64,000 nucleotides of DNA from Oscillospiraceae bacterium (GTDB taxonomy: Bacteria; Bacillota; Clostridia; Oscillospirales; Oscillospiraceae), in assembly GCA_020025595.1 (NCBI GenBank), contig JAHHRV010000007.1:44311-108310 (forward strand), read 5' to 3'. Numbering within the stretch: the stretch's first letter is position 1; the number at the start of each line of letters is the position of its first letter. Of the stretch, positions 33,650 through 46,604 are shown in pieces. The notes beneath the pieces are model-generated. The model saw only the letters and a list, made by a program, of their open reading frames with translations. It made no database searches and had not been told where the DNA came from. A program made the translations under genes and the position numbers.

Positions 33650-34489
33650 CTATTTCAGTAGTCGGGGCAATTCCTCCACCATATCACTGGGCAGCATTCC
33701 ATACTCCCCCAGCCTCTGGGCGCACACATCCCCTGCCCGGCCATGGAGCCACACACCTGCTGCTGCAGCCGTAAGAGGTTCCAGCTTCTGCCCCAGCAGA
33801 CTCACGATGATTCCCGCCAGAACATCACCGCTGCCTCCGGTGGCCATGCCGGGATTTCCCGTGTGATTCTCATAACACAGCTGCCCGTCAGTGATCAGGC
33901 TGCGATGACCTTTGCGCACAATGATGCACCCCAGATCCTTTGCCAGTGCCATCGTCTGTTCCTGCCGTGGCAGATCTTTCGGGCTCAGTCGGGCAAATTC
34001 CCCATCATGGGGCGTCAATATGGTGGGACTTGTCCTGCCCCGCAGTTCATCTTTATGCCGGGAAACCATCGTTATGCCATCTGCATCCAGAACCAGCGGA
34101 CATTTTGCTTCACGCAGCAGCAGCTTCAAAACCGCTTCCGTCCCATCTCCGATTCCGCTGCCGCAGCCAAACAGAACTGCATCCATTCTGGGAAGCAGCT
34201 CCATAATTTTTTCTGATGCACTTTCCGACAGCATTCCGTCTTCATCCGGCAGTGCAAAGATAACCGGCTCATCCAGCTTCACCGCTTCAATGGCATAGAT
34301 GCTCTCCGGGACACCAAGATACACAAGTCCCGCTCCCGTTCTGAGAGCTCCGCGTGAAGCAAAGGCAGCAGCGCCCGTAAATCCCCTGCTGCCGCACAGC
34401 AGCAGAATCTTTCCGTAGTCGCCCTTATGAGTGTCTCTATTTCGCTCAGGAAGTAATATTTTTACATCTTCTTCGTTCAAATATTGCAT
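33650..34489 (-). CDS. nnrD: ADP-dependent NAD(P)H-hydrate dehydratase (YjeF C-terminal family)
   Basis: The motifs are HKGDYGKILLLCGSRGFTGAA and TGGSGDVLAGII. Confidence 0.88.
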   Translation of the reverse strand: MQYLNEEDVKILLPERNRDTHKGDYGKILLLCGSRGFTGAAAFASRGALRTGAGLVYLGVPESIYAIEAVKLDEPVIFALPDEDGMLSESASEKIMELLPRMDAVLFGCGSGIGDGTEAVLKLLLREAKCPLVLDADGITMVSRHKDELRGRTSPTILTPHDGEFARLSPKDLPRQEQTMALAKDLGCIIVRKGHRSLITDGQLCYENHTGNPGMATGGSGDVLAGIIVSLLGQKLEPLTAAAAGVWLHGRAGDVCAQRLGEYGMLPSDMVEELPRLLK

Positions 34490-34609
34490 GTTTACTCCTC
34501 CTGTATTTCATTTTATCCTACAAAAATCATTTCGGCAAGTGTGTTTTCCGTAGCAAATCTGTGTTTTTACTATTTTTTACAGAATTAGTGAAAATTTTTC
34601 CTTCAGCTC

Positions 34610-34638
34610 TTGCAAAATAAATTCAGCTGTGCTATACT
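34610..34638 (+). promoter_or_regulatory. Sigma-A promoter of the aro operon with an extended -10
   Basis: TTGCAA (34610-15), a 17-nt spacer and TGcTATACT (34630-38). Confidence 0.75.
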
Positions 34639-34678
34639 GCATTCATCACTAAACTAGAAATCTCGGAGGCACACCGTC

Positions 34679-34744
34679 ATGAGCCATTGCCTGTTTGCAG
34701 CAGCATACTTCTTTGGCTACTATTACTTTTACCCCAAAAAGTAA
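34679..34744 (+). CDS. Aromatic-rich leader peptide MSHCLFAAAYFFGYYYFYPKK (21 aa)
   Basis: The ATG has GGAGG 9 nt upstream. Nine of 21 codons are Phe or Tyr, and 8 of 9 consecutive codons (10-18) are aromatic. The TAA stop is at 34742-44. The ORF lies between the promoter and a strong terminator, directly upstream of the DAHP synthase gene. Confidence 0.75.
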   Translation: MSHCLFAAAYFFGYYYFYPKK

Positions 34745-34795
34745 TAGCGATTTGTGCTGCTTTCAAATTCTAGCCAGAGCTTATATTTAAGTTTT

Positions 34796-34832
34796 AGCAC
34801 CGCACGAATCGCATCGTGCGGTGCTTTTTTTG
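34796..34832 (+). terminator. Attenuator terminator (regions 3:4) in the aro leader
   Basis: A perfect 12-bp stem pairs agcaccgcacga (34796-807) with tcgtgcggtgct (34814-825), and TTTTTTT follows. It ends 17 nt before the aroF start codon. Confidence 0.9.
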
Positions 34833-34848
34833 TTAAGGAGATGTTGTT

Positions 34849-35850
34849 ATGATCGCTATCTTAAAGCAGGGTACTACCCCCGAACAAACCGAACATCTGG
34901 TGGATTGGCTCAAGCGTATGAATCTGGATGTCCATATTTCTCAGGGACAGGAAGTAACCATTCTTGGTTTAATCGGTGACACCAGCAAGGTCGATATGGA
35001 GCTGCTGGGCAGTCTGGAAATCGTGGAAAGCGTTAAGCGTGTTTCCGAGCCCTTCAAGCAGGTAAACCGTAAATTTCACCCCCGCGACAGCATTGTGGAA
35101 GTCGGCAATGCAAAGATCGGCGGTGGCTACTTCTCCATGATCGCAGGCCCCTGCTCTGTCGAGAGCGAAGACCAGATCATTGAAGTTGCCGAGGCTGTGA
35201 AGGAAGCCGGTGCCACCATTCTGCGCGGCGGCGCATTCAAGCCCCGCACCTCTCCTTATGCATTCCAGGGCATGGGCGAAGAAGGCCTGCACCTGCTGCT
35301 TCAGGCAAAGAAAGCCACCGGCCTTCCCATTTGTACCGAGCTGATGAACATTGTCCACCTGGATCTTTTTGCAGATGTGGATGTCATCCAGATCGGTGCC
35401 CGTAATATGCAGAATTTTGACCTTCTGAAAGAAGTCGGTAAGACGAAAAAGCCCATTCTTCTCAAGCGCGGTCTTGCAAACACCCTGCAGGAGCTGCTGA
35501 TGAGCGCAGAATACATCATGAGCGAAGGCAACCCCAATGTCATTCTCTGCGAGCGTGGCATTCGTACCTACGAAACCTTCACCCGCAACACCCTGGATCT
35601 GTCCGCAGTGCCTGTGCTGCACAACCTGACCCACCTGCCCGTAGTGGTAGACCCCAGCCACGCTACCGGCAAAGCCTACCTGGTGCCCCCCATGGCTGCC
35701 GCTGCTGCAGCAGCCGGTGCCGACGGCATCATGGTCGAGGTCCACAACAACCCCAGCTGTGCCCTGTGCGACGGTGCTCAGTCCCTGACACCTGACCAGT
35801 TTGCCGATCTGAGCCGCCGTGTTCAGATTATCCGGGAGGCCATCCGATGA
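34849..35850 (+). CDS. aroF: 3-deoxy-7-phosphoheptulonate (DAHP) synthase, type I-beta, with an N-terminal ACT/ferredoxin-like regulatory domain
   Basis: The motifs are [22 protein letters not shown] and VDPSH. A roughly 75-aa N-terminal extension resembles the Thermotoga-type enzyme. The RBS is AAGGAG. Confidence 0.92.
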
Positions 35851-36677
35851 ATGTTGGCATCCTGGGTCTGGGACTCATCGGAGGAAGCATGGCAAGAGCC
35901 TACGCTAAGGCCGGGCACACCGTATATGCCTGTGAAAAGGACGAAGATATGCTGGCCTTTGCCCAGCTGGCAGGCGTGGTCACAGACCGACTGGACGAAA
36001 CCTCCATCGGTCAGTGCCAGCTGATTCTGCTTTCCATTTATCCTGCCGGATGCATTGAATGGCTGGAAAAGAATGCCCACCTGATCAGCAAGGATACTCT
36101 CGTAATGGACTGCTGCGGCATCAAGCAGCTGATTGCAGAACACTGCTTCCCCATTGCAGAAAGCTGCGGCTTCACATTTGTTGGCGGTCACCCCATGGCT
36201 GGCAATCATCATTCTGGCTTTAAGTACAGCCGCTCCAATCTGTTCCAGGGCGCTCCCATGGTGCTGGTTCCCCCTCAGTTTGACGATATGGAACTGCTGG
36301 AACGAGTGAAAACAGCCCTTGCCCCCTGCAGCTTTGGTTCGTTCTCTGTAACCACCGCAGCTGAGCACGACCGGATGATTGCATTCACTTCCCAGATGCC
36401 CCACATTCTGAGCAACGCTTTCATCAAATCTCCAACTGCATTGGACCACAAGGGTTTTTCCGCCGGCAGCTACAGGGATCTGACCCGGGTCGCCTGGCTG
36501 AATCCCCAGATGTGGGCAGAACTGTTTCTGGAAAACCGGGAATTTATTCTACAGGAATTGAACACTTATCTGGATTCTCTGGAGCAATACCGGGATGCGG
36601 TTGCTCATAACGATATGGATACCCTTGTCAGCCTTTTGGATGAGGGTAAACAAGCCAAGGAGGAAGTAGACGGATGA
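35847..36677 (+). CDS. tyrA: Prephenate dehydrogenase
   Basis: It has the N-terminal Rossmann motif VGILGLGLIGGSMA and GGHPMAG. It overlaps aroF by 4 bp. Confidence 0.88.
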   Translation: MNVGILGLGLIGGSMARAYAKAGHTVYACEKDEDMLAFAQLAGVVTDRLDETSIGQCQLILLSIYPAGCIEWLEKNAHLISKDTLVMDCCGIKQLIAEHCFPIAESCGFTFVGGHPMAGNHHSGFKYSRSNLFQGAPMVLVPPQFDDMELLERVKTALAPCSFGSFSVTTAAEHDRMIAFTSQMPHILSNAFIKSPTALDHKGFSAGSYRDLTRVAWLNPQMWAELFLENREFILQELNTYLDSLEQYRDAVAHNDMDTLVSLLDEGKQAKEEVDG

Positions 36678-37726
36678 CTACAATTGAAGTAAATGCCTCC
36701 AAATCTTATCAGGTGCAAATCGGATATGATATTCTGAGCACGCTGGGTCAGCAGATTGCCGCTCTTGGCAAGGCTTCCAAGGTTTGTCTGGTCAGCGAGA
36801 GCACCGTATGGCCCCTGTATGGCAGCGCTGCTGAGTGCAGTCTGCAAGCAGCAGGTTTTGATACCTGTCACTTCGTATTTCCCGCCGGCGAGCAAAGCAA
36901 AAACGGTCAGATTTTTCTTGAAATCCTCAATTTTCTGGCTGAGAACAAATTGACCAGAACGGATGTGGTCGTCGCTCTGGGCGGCGGTGTTGTCGGAGAT
37001 CTGGCTGGATTCTGCGCAGCAAGCTATCTGCGCGGTGTCCGGTTTGTGCAGGTACCCACCACCCTGCTGGCTGCCGTTGATTCCAGTGTAGGTGGAAAAA
37101 CCGCCATTGACCTTCCTTCCGGAAAGAATCTGGCAGGCGCATTCTGCCAGCCCAGCCTGGTGCTGTGCGACCTGAAGTGTCTGGAAACACTTCCTCAGGA
37201 TATCTTTCTGGACGGCTGCGCAGAAATTATTAAAACAGCCATTTTGTTTGACCCGGAGATGTTTGAAGAGCTCGCCAAATACGGACCCGAATTTGATCGC
37301 GAGCACATCATCGCCCGGTGTGTCGCCCACAAGCGTGACATTGTAAACGCTGACGAATTTGAGCACGGAGAACGCCAGAAGCTGAATCTGGGACACACCA
37401 TCGGTCACGGAGTGGAAGCCATGAGTGGTTTTACCCTCTCCCACGGAAAATCCGTTGCCATCGGCACTGCCATTGTGGCACGCTCTTCTGCCAAGCTGGG
37501 ACTGTGCTCAGCTGAAACCAGCGAAAAATGCCAGCATCTGCTGACAAGGTTCCACCTTCCCATTCACACGGACTTTTCCGCATCCGACCTTTGCCAAATG
37601 GCGCTTTCTGATAAGAAGCGTTCCGGTGAAACCGTAAATCTGATTATCCCCCGAAAAATCGGCGAATGTTTCATTCGCCCCACCCCCGTAGACGAAATCG
37701 AATCCTTTATTCAGGCAGGTCTTTGA
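36674..37726 (+). CDS. aroB: 3-dehydroquinate synthase
   Basis: The motifs are GGGVVGDLAGFCAA, PTTLLAAVDSSVGGKTAI and NLGHTIGH. It overlaps tyrA by 4 bp. Confidence 0.93.
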   Translation: MTTIEVNASKSYQVQIGYDILSTLGQQIAALGKASKVCLVSESTVWPLYGSAAECSLQAAGFDTCHFVFPAGEQSKNGQIFLEILNFLAENKLTRTDVVVALGGGVVGDLAGFCAASYLRGVRFVQVPTTLLAAVDSSVGGKTAIDLPSGKNLAGAFCQPSLVLCDLKCLETLPQDIFLDGCAEIIKTAILFDPEMFEELAKYGPEFDREHIIARCVAHKRDIVNADEFEHGERQKLNLGHTIGHGVEAMSGFTLSHGKSVAIGTAIVARSSAKLGLCSAETSEKCQHLLTRFHLPIHTDFSASDLCQMALSDKKRSGETVNLIIPRKIGECFIRPTPVDEIESFIQAGL

Positions 37727-37727
37727 T

Positions 37728-38918
37728 ATGGATATTACCATTCATCCCCGAAAATTAAAAGGAACCATCAAAGCGATCCCCTCAAAATCCCAGGCCCACC
37801 GGCTGCTGCTGTGTGCCGCCTTTGCAGATGGCCCCACCACCCTCCTGTGTCCCCAGACCAATCGGGATATTCAGGCAACGGCAGAGTGTCTGCAGGCGCT
37901 GGGCGCCGGGATCATTCGCACGGATGATTCCTACCGCATCACCCCCATTCAGGCGCTGCCTGAGCAAGCAACCCTCAACTGCTGCGAAAGCGGCTCTACA
38001 CTGCGTTTTCTGCTGCCAATCGTGGGCGCACTGGGTGTAGATGCCACCTTTACTATGGAAGGCCGGTTGCCTCAGCGCCCCCTTTCTCCCCTCTGGGAGG
38101 AAATGGAGCGGATGGGCTGCCGCCTCACGAGACCCACAGGTGATACCATTCGCTGCCAGGGAAAATTACAGCCGGGAAGCTACTGCATCGACGGCAGCGT
38201 TTCCAGCCAGTTTGTCACGGGGCTTCTGTTTGCGCTGTCTCTGATAGACGGAAACAGCCGACTGCAGCTCACCGGCAAGGTCGAATCCCTGCCCTACATT
38301 GAAATGACCCTCAGGGCTCTTTCCATGTTTGGTGTGGATGCCCGGCAGCAGGATGGGTGCTATCATCTGGCCCAGGCCCGCTTCTCCACCCCCGGCACCA
38401 TTGAGGTGGAGGGTGACTGGAGCAATGGCGCTTTCTGGTTGGCTGCCAGCGCACTGGGGTCTGAACTGGTCGTGTCGGGGCTGAATGAAAATTCCCCTCA
38501 GGGCGACCGGGCTGTCACCCACTGGCTGTCCGAGCTGACCGCTCCCTGCACCATCGATGCATCCGACATTCCGGATCTTGTTCCCATTCTTGCAGTAGTC
38601 GCAGGTGCCAAGCAAGGTGCTACCTTCATCAACGCCCAGCGGCTGCGAATCAAGGAATCCGACCGACTGCAGACCGTGGCAGACCTGATCAACGGTATCG
38701 GCGGAAAGGCCGCCGTCACAGCGGATGGTCTTGCGGTGCAGGGCGGCGAATATATTGGTGGCACCGTCAATGCCGCAGGCGATCACCGCATTGCCATGGC
38801 TGCTGCCATTGCAGCAACCGTATGCACCCAGCCGCTCACCATTGTGGGCGCTGAAGCTGTGTGCAAATCCTATCCTGCATTCTGGGCAGATTATGTAACT
38901 TTAGGAGGGGTTGTATGA
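37728..38918 (+). CDS. aroA: 3-phosphoshikimate 1-carboxyvinyltransferase (EPSP synthase)
   Basis: The motifs are IPSKSQAHR, ...CESGSTLRF... and DHRIAMA. Confidence 0.93.
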   Translation: MDITIHPRKLKGTIKAIPSKSQAHRLLLCAAFADGPTTLLCPQTNRDIQATAECLQALGAGIIRTDDSYRITPIQALPEQATLNCCESGSTLRFLLPIVGALGVDATFTMEGRLPQRPLSPLWEEMERMGCRLTRPTGDTIRCQGKLQPGSYCIDGSVSSQFVTGLLFALSLIDGNSRLQLTGKVESLPYIEMTLRALSMFGVDARQQDGCYHLAQARFSTPGTIEVEGDWSNGAFWLAASALGSELVVSGLNENSPQGDRAVTHWLSELTAPCTIDASDIPDLVPILAVVAGAKQGATFINAQRLRIKESDRLQTVADLINGIGGKAAVTADGLAVQGGEYIGGTVNAAGDHRIAMAAAIAATVCTQPLTIVGAEAVCKSYPAFWADYVTLGGVV

Positions 38919-39997
38919 GCTCTACCTACGGACAAATGATCAAATTATCCATCTTCGGTCAGTCCCATGGCGCTGCCATCGGCATGACTTTAGACGGTGT
39001 TCCCGCCGGACTGAAGGTCGATTTTGAAGAGCTTCAGGCTTTTCTGAATCGCCGTGCTCCCGGTCAGAACGATTTTTCCACCCCGCGGAAAGAGGCTGAC
39101 GCTCCCGAGTTTCTGTCCGGTCTCCTGGATGGATACACCTGCGGCTCACCTATTGCCGCAATCATCAAAAACACCAACACCCGCTCCGCGGACTATCGGA
39201 ATCTGATGGACTGCCCCAGACCCGGTCACGCTGACTACACCGCTCAGGTAAAATACGGCGGCTATCAGGATGTCTCCGGCGGCGGTCACTTCTCCGGACG
39301 GCTGACAGCGCCCCTTTGCATTGCCGGTGGCCTGTGCAAGCAGTGGCTTGCAGCCCAGGGCATTCAAATCGGTGCCCACATCGCAAAGATTGCAGGCATC
39401 TCCGACACCCCCTTTTCCCCTGTTTCCCCTCAATTAGAGCAGATTGGTACAGATTTTCCCGTTCTTTCAAAGGAATCAGGAGAAATCATGCGCCAGATGA
39501 TTCAAAATGCCAAGGCAGACTGCGACAGCGTCGGCGGCATTGTAGAATGTGCGGTCACAGGGCTTCCTGCCGGGCTGGGGGAACCCATGTTCGGCGGCAT
39601 GGAGGGCAGAATTGCCCAGATCATCTATGGAATTCCCGCCGTGAAGGGCGTGGAATTCGGCGCAGGCTTCGGTGTTGCCGAGCTTCGCGGCAGTGAAAAT
39701 AATGACCCCTACATTATAGAAGACGGCGCTGTCAAAACGCTGACCAATCATGCCGGCGGTATTCTGGGCGGCATCACCAGCGGTATGCCCCTGATTCTGC
39801 GGGCTGCATTCAAGCCCACGCCGTCCATCAGCAAACCCCAGCAAAGCGTTTCCCTGGAACACATGTCACGGGAAGAACTTATTGTAAAAGGACGCCATGA
39901 CCCCTGCATCGTCCCAAGAGCTGTCCCCGTGGTGGAGGCTGCTGTAGCGATTGCAGTTTACGACGCATATCTGGAATGGAAAGCAAGAAAATCATAG
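38915..39997 (+). CDS. aroC: Chorismate synthase
   Basis: The motifs are FGQSHG, RPGHADY and GRHDPC. The start ATG at 38915 overlaps the aroA stop as ATGA. The track's longer N-terminus is rejected. Confidence 0.93.
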   Translation: MSSTYGQMIKLSIFGQSHGAAIGMTLDGVPAGLKVDFEELQAFLNRRAPGQNDFSTPRKEADAPEFLSGLLDGYTCGSPIAAIIKNTNTRSADYRNLMDCPRPGHADYTAQVKYGGYQDVSGGGHFSGRLTAPLCIAGGLCKQWLAAQGIQIGAHIAKIAGISDTPFSPVSPQLEQIGTDFPVLSKESGEIMRQMIQNAKADCDSVGGIVECAVTGLPAGLGEPMFGGMEGRIAQIIYGIPAVKGVEFGAGFGVAELRGSENNDPYIIEDGAVKTLTNHAGGILGGITSGMPLILRAAFKPTPSISKPQQSVSLEHMSREELIVKGRHDPCIVPRAVPVVEAAVAIAVYDAYLEWKARKS

Positions 39998-40010
39998 GGA
40001 GGAAAGCAAA

Positions 40011-41153
40011 ATGGATTTGAACGAATTGCGCAATCAGATTGACAATATTGATGATGAACTGGTAAAGCTGTTCTGCCGGCGCATGGAAGTAGCCGGAGAG
40101 ATTGCGGACTATAAAAAGGAACACAATATGCCCGTGTTTGTCCCCGGCCGTGAACGGGAAAAGCTGCTGGATGTGGCAGAAAAAGCCGGCCCCGATATGG
40201 CAAACTACACCCGTGTCCTTTATTCCATGCTTTTTGAGCTCAGCCGCAGCCACCAAAGCAAAATGAATCACAAGGACACCGACCTGTATCGTCAGATCGT
40301 CCGGGCAATTGACACTACCCCCAAGCTGTTCCCTCAGGCTCCCACCGTGGCCTGTCAGGGCGTTGAGGGCGCTTATGCACAGATTGCCTGTGAAAAGATG
40401 TTCAAAGCTCCCTTTATTATGTATTTCAAAAACTTCGAGAGCATTTTCTCCGCCATTGAAAACGGTCTTTGCCAGTATGGCATTCTGCCGCTGGAGAACT
40501 CTACCGCCGGCTCTGTCAAAAAAGTCTATGACCTGATGATTCGCCATAATTTCTCCATTGTCCGCACCTTCCGTCTGAAAATCGACCACAATTTGCTGGC
40601 CAATCATGGCACCAAGCTTTCGGATATCAGAGAAATCTACTCCCACGAGCAGGCTATCAGCCAGTGCGCAGAATTTCTGGGAACGCTGCCCAATGTGAAG
40701 GTCATTGCTGTGGAAAACACTGCCGTTGCCGCAAAAATGGTGGCAGCTTCCGGTCGATCCGATGTGGCCGCTCTGTCCAGCAGAAACTGCGCAGAGCTGT
40801 ATAATCTGGAAATTCTGGCATCCTCCATTCAGGATAAGGGTAACAACCGTACCCGGTTCATCTGCATTTCCAAGAATCTGGAAATCTATCCCGGTGCTGA
40901 CAGGACCAGCATCATGATGGTTCTGCCCCACCGCCCCGGCTCTTTGTACCGGGTGCTGGCCCGGCTTTACGCACTGGGCATCAATGTGACCAAGCTGGAG
41001 TCCCGCCCCATCCCCGACCGGGATTTTGAGTTCATGTTCTATTTCGATCTGGAAACCTCCATTTATTCCGACGAATTTGTACAGCTCATGTGTGAACTGG
41101 ACGATCTTTCCGAAGAATTCAAGTATCTGGGCAGCTACAGCGAGGTGGTTTGA
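40011..41153 (+). CDS. pheA: Bifunctional chorismate mutase / prephenate dehydratase (P-protein) with a C-terminal ACT domain
   Basis: The CM_2 N-terminus reads LRNQIDNIDDELVKLFCRRMEV. PDT motifs include LENSTAGSV and TRF. The start at 40011 follows the RBS agggagg. Confidence 0.9.
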   Translation: MDLNELRNQIDNIDDELVKLFCRRMEVAGEIADYKKEHNMPVFVPGREREKLLDVAEKAGPDMANYTRVLYSMLFELSRSHQSKMNHKDTDLYRQIVRAIDTTPKLFPQAPTVACQGVEGAYAQIACEKMFKAPFIMYFKNFESIFSAIENGLCQYGILPLENSTAGSVKKVYDLMIRHNFSIVRTFRLKIDHNLLANHGTKLSDIREIYSHEQAISQCAEFLGTLPNVKVIAVENTAVAAKMVAASGRSDVAALSSRNCAELYNLEILASSIQDKGNNRTRFICISKNLEIYPGADRTSIMMVLPHRPGSLYRVLARLYALGINVTKLESRPIPDRDFEFMFYFDLETSIYSDEFVQLMCELDDLSEEFKYLGSYSEVV

Positions 41154-42379
41154 TGAAATTCGGCCTTCTGGGCAGAAAGCTGGGACACAGCTATTCTCCC
41201 CAAATTCACGAACTCATCGGCAAGTATTCCTACGGCCTGTACGAGCGGGAACCGGATCAGGTGGAAGCGCTGCTGCGTCAGCCGGATATCGCTGGTCTGA
41301 ATGTGACCATGCCCTATAAAAAGGATGTGCTTGCATACCTGGACAGCGTAGATGAATTGGCAGCTCGTCTGGGCAGTGTCAACACCATTGTCCGCAGACC
41401 GGACGGAACGCTGGAGGGTCACAACACCGACTACTACGGTTTTCAGTCCATGGTAACACGCAGCGGACTGTCCGTTGCAGGGAAAAAGGTTCTGGTGCTT
41501 GGAACCGGCGGAGCCTCTGTCACCGCAGTTGCCGTGATGGAGGATCTGGGCGCAGATGTCGTTACTATTTCCAGAACCGGCGAAAACAACTATCAGAATC
41601 TTGACCGCCACGCAGATGCCCGCGTTATCGTTAATACTACTCCTGTGGGTATGTATCCCAATACCGGAATTGCACCCCTGGATATCGGGCTGTTCCCGAA
41701 TCTGGAGGGAGTCCTGGATGTGGTCTACAATCCTGCCAGAACCCAACTGCTTCTGGACTGCGAGAAGCGGAACATTCTGGCCTGCAACGGTCTGTGGATG
41801 CTGGTGGCTCAGGCCAAACGGGCCGCAGAATTTTTCACAGGTACTCCCCTGCCCGATCAGATCATCCACGACATCTACCAAAAACTGCACAGCCAGATGG
41901 AAAACATTGTGCTGATCGGCATGGCAGGCTGTGGAAAAACTACCATCGGCAAAATTCTTGCTGAAAAGTGCGGAAAAACATTTGTGGATGCGGACGAGGA
42001 ACTTGAAAAACGGGCAGGAAAATCAATTCCTGAAATCTTTGCACAAGACGGTGAAGAAATTTTTCGTAATCTGGAAACCCAGGTGCTGTCCGATTTGGGC
42101 AAGCAGTCCGGGCTGGTGATTGCCACCGGCGGCGGATGTGTCACGAAAGAACGGAATTACCCTCTGCTCCATCAAAACGGCACCATTGTCTGGATCCAGC
42201 GGGATGTGAATGCACTTCCCACCGACGGACGCCCTCTGTCGCAGCGCACCGATCCTGCAATTCTGTACGAACACAGAATGCCCATGTACGACGCATTTTC
42301 CGACAAAGTGGTCATCAATGACGGGACGGGTGAAGAAGCTGCCAAAAAAATTCTTTCCCTTCTGGAGGAAGCAAAATGA
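41150..42379 (+). CDS. aroE/aroK: Shikimate dehydrogenase - shikimate kinase fusion protein
   Basis: The N-terminal SDH part includes GHSYSPQIHE, NVTMPYK and GTGGAS. The C-terminal kinase part includes the P-loop IGMAGCGKTT and FR..E. It overlaps pheA by 4 bp. Confidence 0.88.
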   Translation: MMKFGLLGRKLGHSYSPQIHELIGKYSYGLYEREPDQVEALLRQPDIAGLNVTMPYKKDVLAYLDSVDELAARLGSVNTIVRRPDGTLEGHNTDYYGFQSMVTRSGLSVAGKKVLVLGTGGASVTAVAVMEDLGADVVTISRTGENNYQNLDRHADARVIVNTTPVGMYPNTGIAPLDIGLFPNLEGVLDVVYNPARTQLLLDCEKRNILACNGLWMLVAQAKRAAEFFTGTPLPDQIIHDIYQKLHSQMENIVLIGMAGCGKTTIGKILAEKCGKTFVDADEELEKRAGKSIPEIFAQDGEEIFRNLETQVLSDLGKQSGLVIATGGGCVTKERNYPLLHQNGTIVWIQRDVNALPTDGRPLSQRTDPAILYEHRMPMYDAFSDKVVINDGTGEEAAKKILSLLEEAK

Positions 42380-42813
42380 AAATTCTGGTTATTAACGGCC
42401 CCAATATCAATATGCTGGGCATTCGGGAGCCGGGTGTCTACGGAAGTCAGAGCTTTGCCCAGCTGCAGCGGCTTTTGAACGAGTGGGCTCAGGAGCTGGG
42501 AATCGAAATCGAGCAGTTCCAGTCCAATCACGAAGGCTCTATCGTGGATAAGATCCAGGCCGCCTACGGAAATTTTGACGGAATCGTCATCAATCCTGCG
42601 GCCTACACCCACACTTCCATCGCCATTCTGGATGCGCTGAAGGCAGTTGCGCTCCCCGCTGTGGAGGTGCACATCTCCGATGTTTCCGCCCGGGAGGACT
42701 TCCGCCAGATCTCCTATGCAGGCATGGCCTGCATTCACACCTTTATGGGATTGGGTTTGGAAGGCTATCACCAGGCCATGATTTATCTAAAAAATCACCT
42801 TGAAAGCCGATAA
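42376..42813 (+). CDS. aroQ: Type II 3-dehydroquinate dehydratase
   Basis: The motifs are ILVINGPNINMLGIREP..YG, SNHEG and NPAAYTHTSIA. It overlaps the upstream gene by 4 bp. Confidence 0.95.
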   Translation: MKILVINGPNINMLGIREPGVYGSQSFAQLQRLLNEWAQELGIEIEQFQSNHEGSIVDKIQAAYGNFDGIVINPAAYTHTSIAILDALKAVALPAVEVHISDVSAREDFRQISYAGMACIHTFMGLGLEGYHQAMIYLKNHLESR

Positions 42814-42848: not shown

Positions 42849-42867
42849 GTCCTATATATTGAAAAAG

Positions 42868-43125
42868 CAAAGAATGGGCTGTCCATTTATCACAGAGCGT
42901 TTTCAGAGAGAGCGGGATGGTGCGATCCGCTCAGCGTAGGTATTTGGGCTTTCTCCCAGGAGCTGCCGCCTGAACAAAAAGTAGGGTGCGCCGGTGTGGC
43001 CTCCGTTATGGGTCGGAGATGTGTCTGCATCTTGCTAAGTGCGCATTTATGCGAATTGCGGGTGGTACCGCGGAAGATTTTCCGGTCTTTCGTCCCCTTT
43101 ATCAGGGACGAAAGACCGTTTTTTC
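42868..43125 (+). promoter_or_regulatory. T-box riboswitch leader, Phe-specific by context, including its terminator at 43084-43125
   Basis: The stem I elements are AGAGAG, with GGTGCGA in the distal loop. The conserved T-box sequence aattgcgggtggtaccgcgg lies at 43054-73. Candidate Phe specifier codons UUU/UUC lie at 42950-53. The terminator has a 13-bp stem, ggtctttcgtccc with gggacgaaagacc, followed by tttttt. Confidence 0.88.
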
Positions 43126-44216: not shown

Positions 44217-46604
44217 ATGAAACTCAACAGAAAATGGATCAATGAGGAGTTCGTGGATCTGTCCCACGTCTCCGACAAGGATTATGTCGAAACCATGACC
44301 GTCTTCGGTCAGAAGGTTGAAACCTACGAGCGTATGGATGCCGAAATCAAGAATGTTGTAGTCGGCAAGGTTGTTTCCATCGTTCGTCACGAGAATTCCG
44401 ACCATATGTGGGTCTGCCAGGTCGATGTGGGCCAGGATGAGCCTGTCCAGATCGTCACCGGTGCCCAGAATGTTCACGAGGGCGACCTGGTCCCCGCAGC
44501 ACTGCACAACTCCTGGCTCCCCGGCGGCGTGCACATCACCAAGGGCAAGCTCCGCGGTGAAAAGTCCAACGGTATGCTCTGCTCTTTCCAGGAGCTGGGC
44601 CTGACTGAAAACGATCTGCCCGGCGTATTTGCAGACGGCATCTGGATTCTGAATGACGAAGACTGCAAGCCCGGCGACGATATCAATCTGGTCATCGGCA
44701 ACGACGACACCGTGGTTGACTTTGAAATCACCAACAACCGTCCCGACTGCTACTCCATCATTGGCCTTGCAAGAGAGTCCGCTGCCGCCTTCGGTATGCA
44801 GATGAAGCATCACGAGCCTGTGGTCAAGGGCAGCAATGCCGGTTCCATCTTTGAAAAGCTGGATGTAGAGGTTCCCGCCGAGCAGCTGTGCAACCGCTAC
44901 TCTGCAAGAATGGTCGCCAATGTCAAGGTTGGCCCCTCCCCCAAGTGGCTGCGTCAGCGTCTGCGTGCCAACGGCATCCGCCCCATTAACAACATTGTTG
45001 ACATCACCAACTATGTGATGCTGGAGTATGGTCAGCCCATGCACGCATTTGACTATCGCTATGTCAGCTCCGGCACCATCGTTGTCCGTGAAGCTGTAGA
45101 AGGTGAGAGCCTGACCACTCTGGACGGCAATGTCCGGAACCTGAAGCCCGGTATGCTGGTCATCGCCGACGGTGAAAAGCCCATCGGTCTTGCCGGTATC
45201 ATGGGCGGCGAAAATTCCGAAATCCGCGATGACACCACCTGTGTAGTCTTTGAATCTGCCAACTTCAACGGCACCTCCATCCGTCAGACTGCTCTGGCTC
45301 TGGGTATGCGTACCGAGGCTTCCGGTAAGTTTGAAAAGCACCTGGATCCCATGATGACCGTTCCCGCTGTGGAGCGTGCCTGTGAACTGGTGGAACTGCT
45401 GGAGTGCGGCGATATCATGGATGGCATCATCGATATTCTCAACTATGTTCCCCAGTCCAAGACTCTGCCTCTGGAGCCTGAGAAGATCAACCACCTGCTG
45501 GGCACCAACATCTCCCGCGAGGATATGGTCAAGTACCTGAATCAGCTGGAGATTCCCGTGGAGGGCGACAAGATTCTGGTTCCCTCCTGGCGTCCCGACC
45601 TGAACCTGATGGCTGATATTGCTGAGGAAGTGGGCAGAAGCTTCGGCTACAACGAAATCCCCACCACCGCATTCAAGACCTCCACTCAGGGCGGCTACTC
45701 CCCCATCATGCTGACCGAGAACAAGCTGGGCACCCTGTGCCGCGCACTGGGATACAGTGAGATCATCACCTATTCCTTCGTTTCTCCCACCATTTTCGAT
45801 CAGATCCGTCTGCCCGGCGATTCCCCTCTGCGCAACGCCATGCGGATCCAGAACCCTCTGGGCGAAGATACCTCCATCATGCGTACCATCGCTCTGCCCT
45901 CCATGCTGGACATTCTGTCTCGGAACAATGCATACCACAACAAGTGTGCAAAGCTCTATGAGCTGGCAAAGGTCTACCTGCCTGTAGAGGGTCAGCCCCT
46001 TCCCGAAGAGCCCAAGATGCTCCTGCTGGGTACCTACGGTTCCGGCGAAACCTTCTTCTCTCTGAAGGGCGAGCTGGAAGCCATTCTCACCGGTCTGCGT
46101 CTGCCCAAGGCAACCTACACCGCTGTTAAGGACAATCCTTCCTATCATCCCGGCCGCTGCGCAATGGTTTCCATCAACGGCGTTGAGCTGGGCTATATGG
46201 GTCAGGTGCATCCTCTGGTTGCAAAGAACTACGGCTTCGACGGCGAGGTTTACTGCGCTGAGATCAACTTCAGCAAGGCTTACGAGCTGCAGCTGCCGGA
46301 ACCCACCTTCGTTGCACTGCCCAAGTATCCTGCCGTTACCCGCGACCTGGCTCTGATCTGTGATGAGGATGTCACCGTCGCTCAGGTAGAGGATGTCATC
46401 ACCGCATCCGCCGGCAAGCTGCTGCGCAAGGTCCGTCTGTTCGACATTTACCGCGGTATCGGCGTTCCTGAAGACAAGAAGAGTCTTGCTTTCTCTCTGG
46501 AACTGCGTGCCGATGACCGGACTCTGACCGATGCCGATTCCGAGGCTGTTGTGAGCAAGGTTCTTGCCGCTCTTGCTGAGAAGCTGAACGCTGTTCTGCG
46601 CTGA
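44217..46604 (+). CDS. pheT: Phenylalanine--tRNA ligase beta subunit
   Basis: It is 795 aa with tRNA-binding, B3/4, B5 and FDX-ACB domains recognisable. Confidence 0.95.
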   Translation: MKLNRKWINEEFVDLSHVSDKDYVETMTVFGQKVETYERMDAEIKNVVVGKVVSIVRHENSDHMWVCQVDVGQDEPVQIVTGAQNVHEGDLVPAALHNSWLPGGVHITKGKLRGEKSNGMLCSFQELGLTENDLPGVFADGIWILNDEDCKPGDDINLVIGNDDTVVDFEITNNRPDCYSIIGLARESAAAFGMQMKHHEPVVKGSNAGSIFEKLDVEVPAEQLCNRYSARMVANVKVGPSPKWLRQRLRANGIRPINNIVDITNYVMLEYGQPMHAFDYRYVSSGTIVVREAVEGESLTTLDGNVRNLKPGMLVIADGEKPIGLAGIMGGENSEIRDDTTCVVFESANFNGTSIRQTALALGMRTEASGKFEKHLDPMMTVPAVERACELVELLECGDIMDGIIDILNYVPQSKTLPLEPEKINHLLGTNISREDMVKYLNQLEIPVEGDKILVPSWRPDLNLMADIAEEVGRSFGYNEIPTTAFKTSTQGGYSPIMLTENKLGTLCRALGYSEIITYSFVSPTIFDQIRLPGDSPLRNAMRIQNPLGEDTSIMRTIALPSMLDILSRNNAYHNKCAKLYELAKVYLPVEGQPLPEEPKMLLLGTYGSGETFFSLKGELEAILTGLRLPKATYTAVKDNPSYHPGRCAMVSINGVELGYMGQVHPLVAKNYGFDGEVYCAEINFSKAYELQLPEPTFVALPKYPAVTRDLALICDEDVTVAQVEDVITASAGKLLRKVRLFDIYRGIGVPEDKKSLAFSLELRADDRTLTDADSEAVVSKVLAALAEKLNAVLR

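Follow-up and report, generated by a model that had tools for sequence, protein, structure and literature searches.

Transcription attenuation by leader peptides is a textbook mechanism. In Escherichia coli, the leaders pheL–pheA, pheM–pheST and trpL combine a run of codons for the cognate amino acid with a stop codon placed next to the 5′ strand of an antiterminator, and the antiterminator competes with a terminator. Here, we focus on an element that shares these properties, the leader of the aromatic amino acid (aro) operon in a stretch of 64,000 nucleotides (nt) from an Oscillospiraceae bacterium (assembly GCA_020025595.1, contig JAHHRV010000007.1); the whole stretch is termed the window below, is numbered from its first letter, and carries the features described on its plus strand unless stated otherwise. 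Computation directly established the parts of this leader and how far they are conserved, as well as covariation in each of the two alternative helices and the geometry, and these make it very probable that the aro leader is a ribosome-mediated transcription attenuator sensing charged tRNA-Phe and tRNA-Tyr. A preliminary description of the same DNA had proposed a Phe/Tyr attenuator of this type on the aro operon, and that core claim is supported by the conserved unit, the covarying helices and the geometry. We infer the translation of the leader open reading frame (ORF), the stalling of ribosomes upon it, the sizes of their footprints, and a possible pausing or synchronising role of a codon hairpin, termed B:B′. 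The E. coli leaders differ in being proteobacterial and in sensing one amino acid each, and they have no similarity to the aro leader in sequence or by covariance model; in the aro leader, by contrast, the regulatory codons form a conserved hairpin with the stop region, the terminator loop takes part in the antiterminator, and two amino acids are sensed.

An attenuator at aroR–aroF of Corynebacterium glutamicum was reportedly described by Neshat et al. in 2014. In that organism, a leader with the codons Phe-Tyr-Phe lies upstream of aroF and responds to Phe limitation by ribosome-mediated transcription attenuation (PMC11802643, PMC4046766). As described, aroR resembles the aro leader in its mixed F/Y (Phe/Tyr) codons, its aroF context and its ribosome-mediated attenuation; it differs in belonging to the Actinobacteria, in having three regulatory codons where the aro leader has eight of nine (and relatives up to nine of nine), and in a reported response to Phe, not Tyr. 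The element described here differs further in its reach, since it controls all eight genes of an aro/tyrA/pheA operon and, among relatives, also an ABC transporter. We assume that it originated independently of aroR. A second precedent is the uORFC-13-1 motif (PMC8632094), which Brewer et al. (2021) predicted ahead of aroF in Acholeplasma as well as in environmental sequences of unassigned origin. It shares with the aro leader an upstream ORF with a promoter, a ribosome-binding site and a U-run coding for Phe, an adjoining terminator and aroF, an extra base-paired substructure and a Firmicutes-related lineage; it differs in that it comprises 24 sequences and is described as having 'at least one' Phe, with a Tyr run unmentioned, and it may be either the same family as the present one or a distinct one.

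Leader peptides that sense amino acids also operate alongside T-boxes within the Firmicutes. His leader peptides are found in the Bacillus cereus group, Peptostreptococcaceae and Erysipelotrichales (PMC2965389, PMC9413887), Staphylococcus aureus has a Leu-rich attenuator peptide at ilv-leu (PMC5794164), and ribosome-dependent antibiotic-sensing attenuators are established in Bacillus subtilis (PMC4191407, PMC9226507). The His and Leu leaders differ from the aro leader in their amino acids, operons and RNA sequences, and involve neither aromatic biosynthesis nor the Oscillospirales. Given these His and Leu leaders, aroR and uORFC-13-1, the view that a Phe/Tyr leader is unusual for Firmicutes was overstated in the preliminary description. 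The literature searched yielded no prior description of this leader in Clostridia or Oscillospirales, which is not proof of novelty; the widespread gut-bacterial leader family appears to be undescribed and its mechanism conventional. Some of the anatomy is distinctive: the regulatory codons and the stop codon share one hairpin, the antiterminator draws on the loop of the terminator, F and Y are balanced in the run, and the regulon includes a transporter.

The leader ORF (34679–34744) comprises 21 codons and a TAA stop (34742–34744), encodes MSHCLFAAAYFFGYYYFYPKK, and has homologues in F/Y-rich ORFs upstream of aroF. Its Shine–Dalgarno (SD) sequence, GGAGG (34665–34669), lies 9 nt 5′ of the ATG at 34679; among 20 aligned close relatives, its G-A-G does not vary and the full GGAGG hardly does. 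Codons 10–18 (34706–34732) read YFFGYYYFY, eight of the nine being F or Y, and are the proposed sites at which ribosomes would stall when Phe-tRNA or Tyr-tRNA is scarce. The 21-codon ORF with its good ribosome-binding site, the aromatic run and the stop at 34742 are present as first described, and across the leader the earlier coordinates need shifting by no more than one or two bases. F/Y codons number 9 of 21 in the frame of the ORF, against one and none in the other two frames.

The conservation of this unit was assessed in loci retrieved by an AroF protein scan with one genome per species. The scan gave 80 loci (60–85% identical; 79 with usable upstream regions), almost all from metagenome-assembled genomes (MAGs), with the labels Faecousia, Oscillospiraceae, Acutalibacteraceae, Ruminococcus, Oscillibacter, Christensenellaceae and 'Clostridia'; the window accordingly derives from a Faecousia-like member of the Oscillospiraceae. 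A short ORF with at least six F/Y per nine residues is found in 58 of the 79 upstream regions (400 nt each), rising to 66 of 79 at a looser threshold of at least five. At the stricter threshold, the controls returned 1 of 79 reverse complements, 0 of 395 shuffles and 2 of 2224 other 400-nt windows from the same loci, which puts the feature well outside chance expectation. The F/Y-rich ORFs lie 140–250 nt upstream of aroF and encode peptides of 14–44 amino acids (median 22), varied in sequence, for example MSSAAQFYFYYYYFFTQKK, MFTFAYYYYYYFTKSNSDLCCKQF, MTAIARTAEYGYFYFSFTKF... and MQIDHANFGFYFGFYFAW... Both F and Y are present in 64 of 65 leaders (means 4.4 F and 4.0 Y, together 35% of residues), and Trp is rare. 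Nearly all relatives have a promoter of the form TTGNNA-17-(TG)-TATAAT located 28–33 nt upstream of the leader ATG. The SD sequence, the ATG and the in-frame F/Y run are kept, with the promoter and terminator, across many Oscillospirales, and the peptide outside the run diverges; because composition, frame and position are conserved and sequence is not, the ORF is best understood as a leader peptide, not as a functional peptide or a protein-binding RNA. Phe codons are UUU in 84% of cases in the leaders (65 loci) compared with 43% in the adjacent aroF genes, a bias that may reflect either base pairing within the codon hairpin or a preference for the codon read by wobble.

Beyond the ORF lie the strands of two alternative helices. 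The intrinsic terminator (34796–34831) consists of a perfect stem of 12 base pairs (bp) (34796–34807 with 34814–34825; −22.9 kcal/mol), a 6-nt loop, ATCGCA, and a run of seven T (34825–34831), whose first T is also the last base of the stem, leaving TTTTTT to follow it. The stem and run had been recognised earlier, with the end of the terminator placed one position too far, at 34832 in place of 34831. A perfect-stem terminator with a T tract occurs 15–50 nt before aroF in 52 leader-bearing loci, and in most of the others the terminator is imperfect. The predicted antiterminator pairs its 5′ strand, GCGAUUUGUGCUGCU (34747–34761), which starts 3 nt after the stop codon and contains TGTGCTGCT (34753–34761), with a 3′ strand at 34796–34812 that consists of AGCA, an unpaired CC, and GCACGA from the terminator 5′ arm followed by AUCGC from the loop. 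The resulting helix, 34747–34761 with AGCA/GCACGAAUCGC (34796–34799 and 34802–34812), has 15 bp around the CC bulge and an energy of −22.3 kcal/mol, which none of 300 shuffles equals (constrained folding and RNAduplex). It engages the terminator 5′ arm and most of the terminator loop, and because both structures use the 5′ arm, terminator and antiterminator are mutually exclusive. A pairing of the segment downstream of the stop with the terminator 5′ arm had been foreseen in the preliminary description; its extent, 9 bp with a mismatch, was wrong, and the pairing runs to 15 bp including the loop. The shorter helix was set aside as the antiterminator in favour of the longer one given by constrained folding and RNAduplex, and in relatives GCCGCACA:UGUGCUGC plus the loop pairs in place of the 9-bp register.

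Both helices are conserved among relatives. The antiterminator 5′ strand is part of the most conserved block of the leader in the 20 close relatives, and an equivalent helix is built from different sequences elsewhere (GAAAUUUGUGC/GCACGAAUUUC; GUAAUUUGUGC/GCACAGAUUAC; GGUAAUUUGUG/CACAGGUUAC; UGGUUUGGCUG/CAGCCAAACC; GGGCGGGGUUCUUC/GAGGACCCCGCC). The terminator loop covaries with the 5′ strand, as in GAAAUU/AAUUUC, GUAAUU/GAUUAC and GCGGUU/AACCGC. In 35 of 52 loci, the antiterminator is significantly better than its shuffled controls (p ≤ 0.05), and its register is 88% paired in a plain MAFFT alignment of the 20 close relatives, compared with at most 55% when the register is slid. A covariance model, R1, built from the 20-relative alignment recovered 34 plus-strand leaders at E < 1e-6; in the alignment of these 34 sequences, the antiterminator is 89–91% paired with double changes at six pairs, and all five covariation measures exceed 500 of 500 shuffles. 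The terminator is 97% paired in the same alignment, which was not fitted to it, and shows double changes in five of eight core pairs. Comparison of the aroF upstream regions, which the preliminary description had proposed as a check, yields a conserved aromatic run together with compensatory changes in both terminator and antiterminator. The leader as a whole is strongly structured: the minimum free energy (MFE) of 34645–34835, −64.3 kcal/mol, is far lower than that of 200 dinucleotide-shuffled versions (z = −6.7).

A third helix, absent from the pairing scheme originally put forward, is the best conserved of all. Hairpin B:B′ (34720–34747) joins CTATTACTTTT (34720–34730) to AAAAGTAATAG (34737–34747) by 11 bp across a 6-nt loop, and overlaps the antiterminator by only 1 nt. 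In RNA, the B strand is CUAUUACUUUU, comprising Tyr/Phe codons 14–17 and the first base of Tyr codon 18, and the B′ strand is AAAAGUAAUAG, which covers the Lys codons and UAA stop along with a second stop triplet, UAG. The hairpin is found both in the window MFE structure and by RNAalifold; it is essentially invariant in the 20 close relatives (99.5% paired), and in the 34 sequences it is 96.5% paired with double changes at 7 of its 11 pairs. In trpL, the 1:2 hairpin acts as a pause that lets the ribosome catch up, and by analogy B:B′, followed by GAUUUGUG, might serve as such a pause, or as a 1:2 hairpin, although this is speculation.

The positions of these elements suggest how a translating ribosome would choose between the helices. 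The footprint of a ribosome is taken to span about −12 to +15 nt around the first base of the P site. When Phe and Tyr are plentiful, the ribosome would run on to the UAA at 34742, and with this codon in its A site it would reach some 12 nt further, to approximately 34754, burying the first 8 of the 15 paired bases of 34747–34761; with the antiterminator strand masked, the terminator would form and the operon would be off. When Phe-tRNA or Tyr-tRNA is scarce, the ribosome would stall with one of codons 10–18 in the A site and its 3′ edge at 34742 or thereabouts at most. A ribosome in that position would melt B:B′ and any upstream partner of 34747–34761 and leave the latter strand free to capture the emerging terminator 5′ arm, and RNA polymerase would then read through into aroF...aroQ. 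In several clades, the ORF runs through the antiterminator strand itself (ending in ...SDLCCK and a stop), which would completely mask that strand. Occupancy was simulated by constrained folds, scoring the probability that the terminator 5′ arm is captured from upstream. Folding under these ribosome-mimicking constraints, a test suggested in the preliminary description, reproduces the switch in the window, where the capture probability is 0.80 with a stalled ribosome versus 0.18 with a ribosome at the stop; across 52 loci the mean is 0.73 when stalled, 0.43 at the stop and 0.49 without a ribosome.

Attenuators of this kind also have an anti-antiterminator (1:2) that forms when the leader is unoccupied. 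Across all clades, the antiterminator strand is predicted to be sequestered by an upstream partner before the terminator is transcribed in 47 of 52 loci; in 36 of 52, a ribosome that stalls on the aromatic run would cover this partner. Given this widespread upstream sequestration, an anti-antiterminator probably exists, with a drifting identity. One possible partner of 34753–34761 is segment A, GCAGCAGCA (34697–34705, codons 7–9), which is weakly conserved. Within it, AGCAGCA (34699–34705) can pair with UGCUGCU (RNAduplex, −13.8 kcal/mol). This 1:2 pairing formed part of the preliminary description, whose segments are present and able to pair; its conservation is weak, and in the window MFE structure the partner of 34753–34763 is the SD region (34665–34678), not segment 1.

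Several points weigh against reading the leader as an attenuator of this design. Among the 20 close relatives, the 1:2 pairing reaches just 73% and shows no double changes, and it does not appear in their RNAalifold consensus. At equilibrium, an untranslated window transcript favours the antiterminator, with the arm paired at 0.79 in the absence of a ribosome, so that the off state relies on a terminating ribosome or on kinetics. The alignment of 34 sequences was fitted to the antiterminator structure and is hence biased somewhat towards it, and the plain MAFFT alignment of the 20 close relatives shows modest covariation. That the ORF is translated, that transcription ends prematurely and that Phe/Tyr evoke a response are predictions drawn from sequence, and the mechanism would require synchrony of ribosome and polymerase, which is assumed for these Clostridia.

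Other readings of the same locus have to be set against ribosome-mediated attenuation. The choice between terminator and antiterminator might be made by an RNA-binding protein acting in trans (TRAP-, PyrR- or HutP-like), or by a tRNA, that reads the conserved UAUUACUUUU / AAAAGUAAUAG-CGAUUUGUGCUGC block, the ORF being incidental; the block CTATTACTTTT...AAAAGTAATAGCGATTTGTGCTGC is indeed almost invariant in 20 related species, synonymous positions included, as recognition of a specific sequence could explain, and leaderless aroF paralogs in Ruminococcus-like genomes bear repeat arrays that resemble protein-binding sites. However, the SD sequence, ATG and in-frame F/Y run persist where the block has diverged (Oscillibacter, Ruminococcus and Kiritimatiellae-labelled loci), and the hairpin covaries in the wider alignment, where the double changes at seven pairs indicate that it is structure, not sequence, that is kept. 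Nor do the hallmarks of such a regulator appear: in 34480–34900, Rfam shows no T-box, other riboswitch or relevant small RNA, either at gathering thresholds or at E ≤ 10; the leader has no T-box core GGGUGGNACCGCG and no stem I/specifier; in 34640–34848 there are not even three repeats of the TRAP type, for which an array has 9–11 (G/U)AG triplets at 2–3 nt spacing; and the Rfam 15 leader families (Phe_leader, Trp_leader, His_leader, Leu/phe leader and others) give no meaningful match in 34480–34900. An identification as the small RNA SpF11, the only Rfam match, was rejected (34.6 bits, E = 9e-4, gathering score 54), the matching residues lying mostly in the terminator hairpin. A protein or tRNA reader is for these reasons highly improbable.

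Still less probable is an arrest of the ribosome by the aromatic nascent peptide itself, with free Phe/Tyr or some other ligand as the signal in place of tRNA charging, in the manner of TnaC or Erm leaders. Aromatic-rich nascent chains can interact with the exit tunnel, and the architecture of ORF, antiterminator and terminator would be identical; antibiotic-sensing attenuators of this type with an upstream ORF exist in Firmicutes (PMC4191407, PMC9226507). Yet ligand-dependent arrest peptides have conserved sequences, whereas only F/Y composition is kept here and order, length and flanks vary, and where the genes serve biosynthesis and uptake, induction by excess Phe/Tyr would have the wrong sign. 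The least probable reading is that the ORF encodes a functional small hydrophobic peptide, or that the hairpin terminates or insulates constitutively and never permits readthrough on condition. Hydrophobic peptides of this size are common, and a strong terminator with its U tract stands 23 nt before aroF, but a constitutive 12-bp terminator between an eight-gene operon and its only nearby promoter would silence the operon, and the terminator does not serve the upstream gene, since that gene is on the opposite strand. Moreover, a mutually exclusive antiterminator is conserved and covarying, and the peptide outside the F/Y run is not conserved.

The attenuator seems not to be confined to the aro operon. 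A pattern scan of metagenomes with the conserved core AAGTAATAGNNNTTTGTGCTGC gave 120 matches, many of them on human-gut-named contigs; by downstream gene, 63 precede aroF (81–163 nt upstream), 38 a three-gene ABC transporter operon (a PF04392 binding lipoprotein, a BPD_transp_2 permease and an ATPase) and 2 tyrA. Around 15 matches were discarded as chance, having no hairpin and mostly non-gut-style contig names; five of these were tested and gave no R1 match. The transporter and tyrA leaders match R1 at E = 1e-15 to 2e-6, with examples MKANCFAFAYGYFYYFFMQKK and MLRRFSRYYRYYFGEKK (matched transporter/tyrA leader loci L102, L107, L110, L117, L118, L123, L125 and L170; L126 and L164). The same leader before biosynthesis and uptake genes is as expected for an amino-acid-responsive attenuator; it suggests that the PF04392-type ABC transporter imports Phe/Tyr, and the leader element would form a small regulon of the aro operon, the ABC transporter and tyrA. 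One metagenome variant reads MVHHGFFMCAFLLLLLLFYRKK, which appears to arise when these nucleotides are read in a different frame (CUA UUA CUU UUU), perhaps through an assembly indel. All 64 kb of the window were also scanned for short ORFs that follow an SD sequence, contain a run of particular amino acids and are accompanied by a terminator; no other convincing leader peptide emerged, the scan returning the aro leader and two unconvincing matches.

The window also contains a T-box. It lies directly after the aro operon, at about 42861–43100, upstream of pheS (ATG 43161) and pheT (44217–46604), and scores 78 bits (E = 2e-17); it was missed in a default scan because this is below the Rfam gathering score of 93. 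It has a canonical GGGUGGUACCGCG, UUC aligned at the specifier position and a terminator of its own, and served as a positive control for the T-box search in the aro leader. The T-box (RF00230) and the leader peptide share a function, in that the T-box senses uncharged tRNA for terminator readthrough, but the T-box reads a single tRNA directly and without translation, whereas a leader ORF can integrate two amino acids. Both devices are thus present in one organism, a T-box for one tRNA signal and a leader peptide where two amino acids are integrated.

The aro leader occupies a 359-nt gap between an NAD(P)H-hydrate dehydratase gene (33650–34489, minus strand) and the DAHP synthase ATG at 34849. 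At its start is a sigma-70-type promoter-like site (34610–34638) with a −35 element TTGCAA (34610–34615), a 17-nt spacer, TG (34630–34631), c, and TATACT (34633–34638), matching 9 of 12 positions plus the extended −10 TG; transcription would start near 34645, some 35 nt 5′ of the leader ORF. The aroF gene has its own SD sequence, AAGGAG, and ATG (34835–34851; assigned from sequence and Pfam), the SD beginning 10 nt past the terminator stem and not being sequestered by the terminator. The regulated operon, aroF-tyrA-aroB-aroA-aroC-pheA-aroEK-aroQ (34849–42813, from Pfam and the ORF map), is probably co-transcribed, as its ORFs overlap or abut. By Pfam, its products are DAHP synthase (with an FXD domain), prephenate dehydrogenase, DHQ synthase, EPSP synthase, chorismate synthase, a CM-PDT-ACT protein (pheA), a shikimate dehydrogenase–kinase fusion and type II dehydroquinase; trp genes are absent from this downstream operon. 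The promoter and an operon making Phe (pheA) and Tyr (tyrA) in the absence of trp genes are as the preliminary description had them. The aroE–aroK fusion is a single 409-amino-acid protein (41150–42379), with Shikimate_dh_N and SDH_C followed by SKI. Elsewhere in the window, a cobalamin riboswitch (RF00174) is found at 27–209 (90.4 bits, E = 5e-21).

Other aroF loci have different upstream regions. Leaderless aroF genes, paralogs or orthologs, occur in Ruminococcus-like MAGs (L047 at ~2860–2960, L055, L067, L068 at ~2560–2690, and L075), where a strong TTGACA-17-TATACT promoter is directly followed by three to five AAAGCTT/AAAAGC units every 8–10 nt, for example ACATAAAAGCTTTAAAGCTTAAAACCTTAAAAGCTTAAAATCGC. 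These units look like a repeated protein-binding site; the repeat region has no obvious terminator and no Rfam match, and no T-boxes were found in the aroF loci that lack an F/Y leader. Two genomes hold both kinds of aroF (L073 with L055, and L071 with L075). F/Y leaders with terminators also stand before aroF on contigs binned outside the Firmicutes, namely as Kiritimatiellae (L058, L059), Lentisphaerae (L042) and Alloprevotella (L039); L058 has a strong antiterminator and pheA as its next gene. These non-Firmicutes labels could reflect either horizontal transfer of gene and leader together or mis-binning.

Tentatively, and with slightly more doubt than conviction, we propose that gut Oscillospirales have an abundant RNA family, so far undescribed, of which the aro leader is the first member to be recognised, and which forms a dual Phe and Tyr attenuator regulon (aro/tyrA/pheA, a tyrA-led operon and the PF04392-type transporter) and whose breadth would imply that synchrony of ribosome and RNA polymerase is mainstream. 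The textbook picture of attenuation is left unchanged by such a family, which is absent from Rfam 15 and ready for a covariance model. It would offer a functional prediction for the leader-controlled ABC transporter, namely Phe/Tyr uptake, and would illustrate how a leader peptide may come to be favoured over a T-box in nature, since one ORF serves two amino acids and the pheS T-box only tRNA-Phe. For a large group of mostly uncultured gut Clostridia, among them Faecousia, other Oscillospiraceae, Acutalibacteraceae, Ruminococcus, Oscillibacter and Christensenellales-type MAGs, it would supply testable regulation of the aromatic amino acid pathway and a handle on the coordination of transcription and translation. 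If the proposal is true, synchrony of ribosome and RNA polymerase would count as a mainstream regulatory resource for one of the major orders within the Clostridia, notwithstanding the picture of 'runaway transcription' derived from B. subtilis, and a pause at the conserved codon hairpin may be what sets this synchrony.

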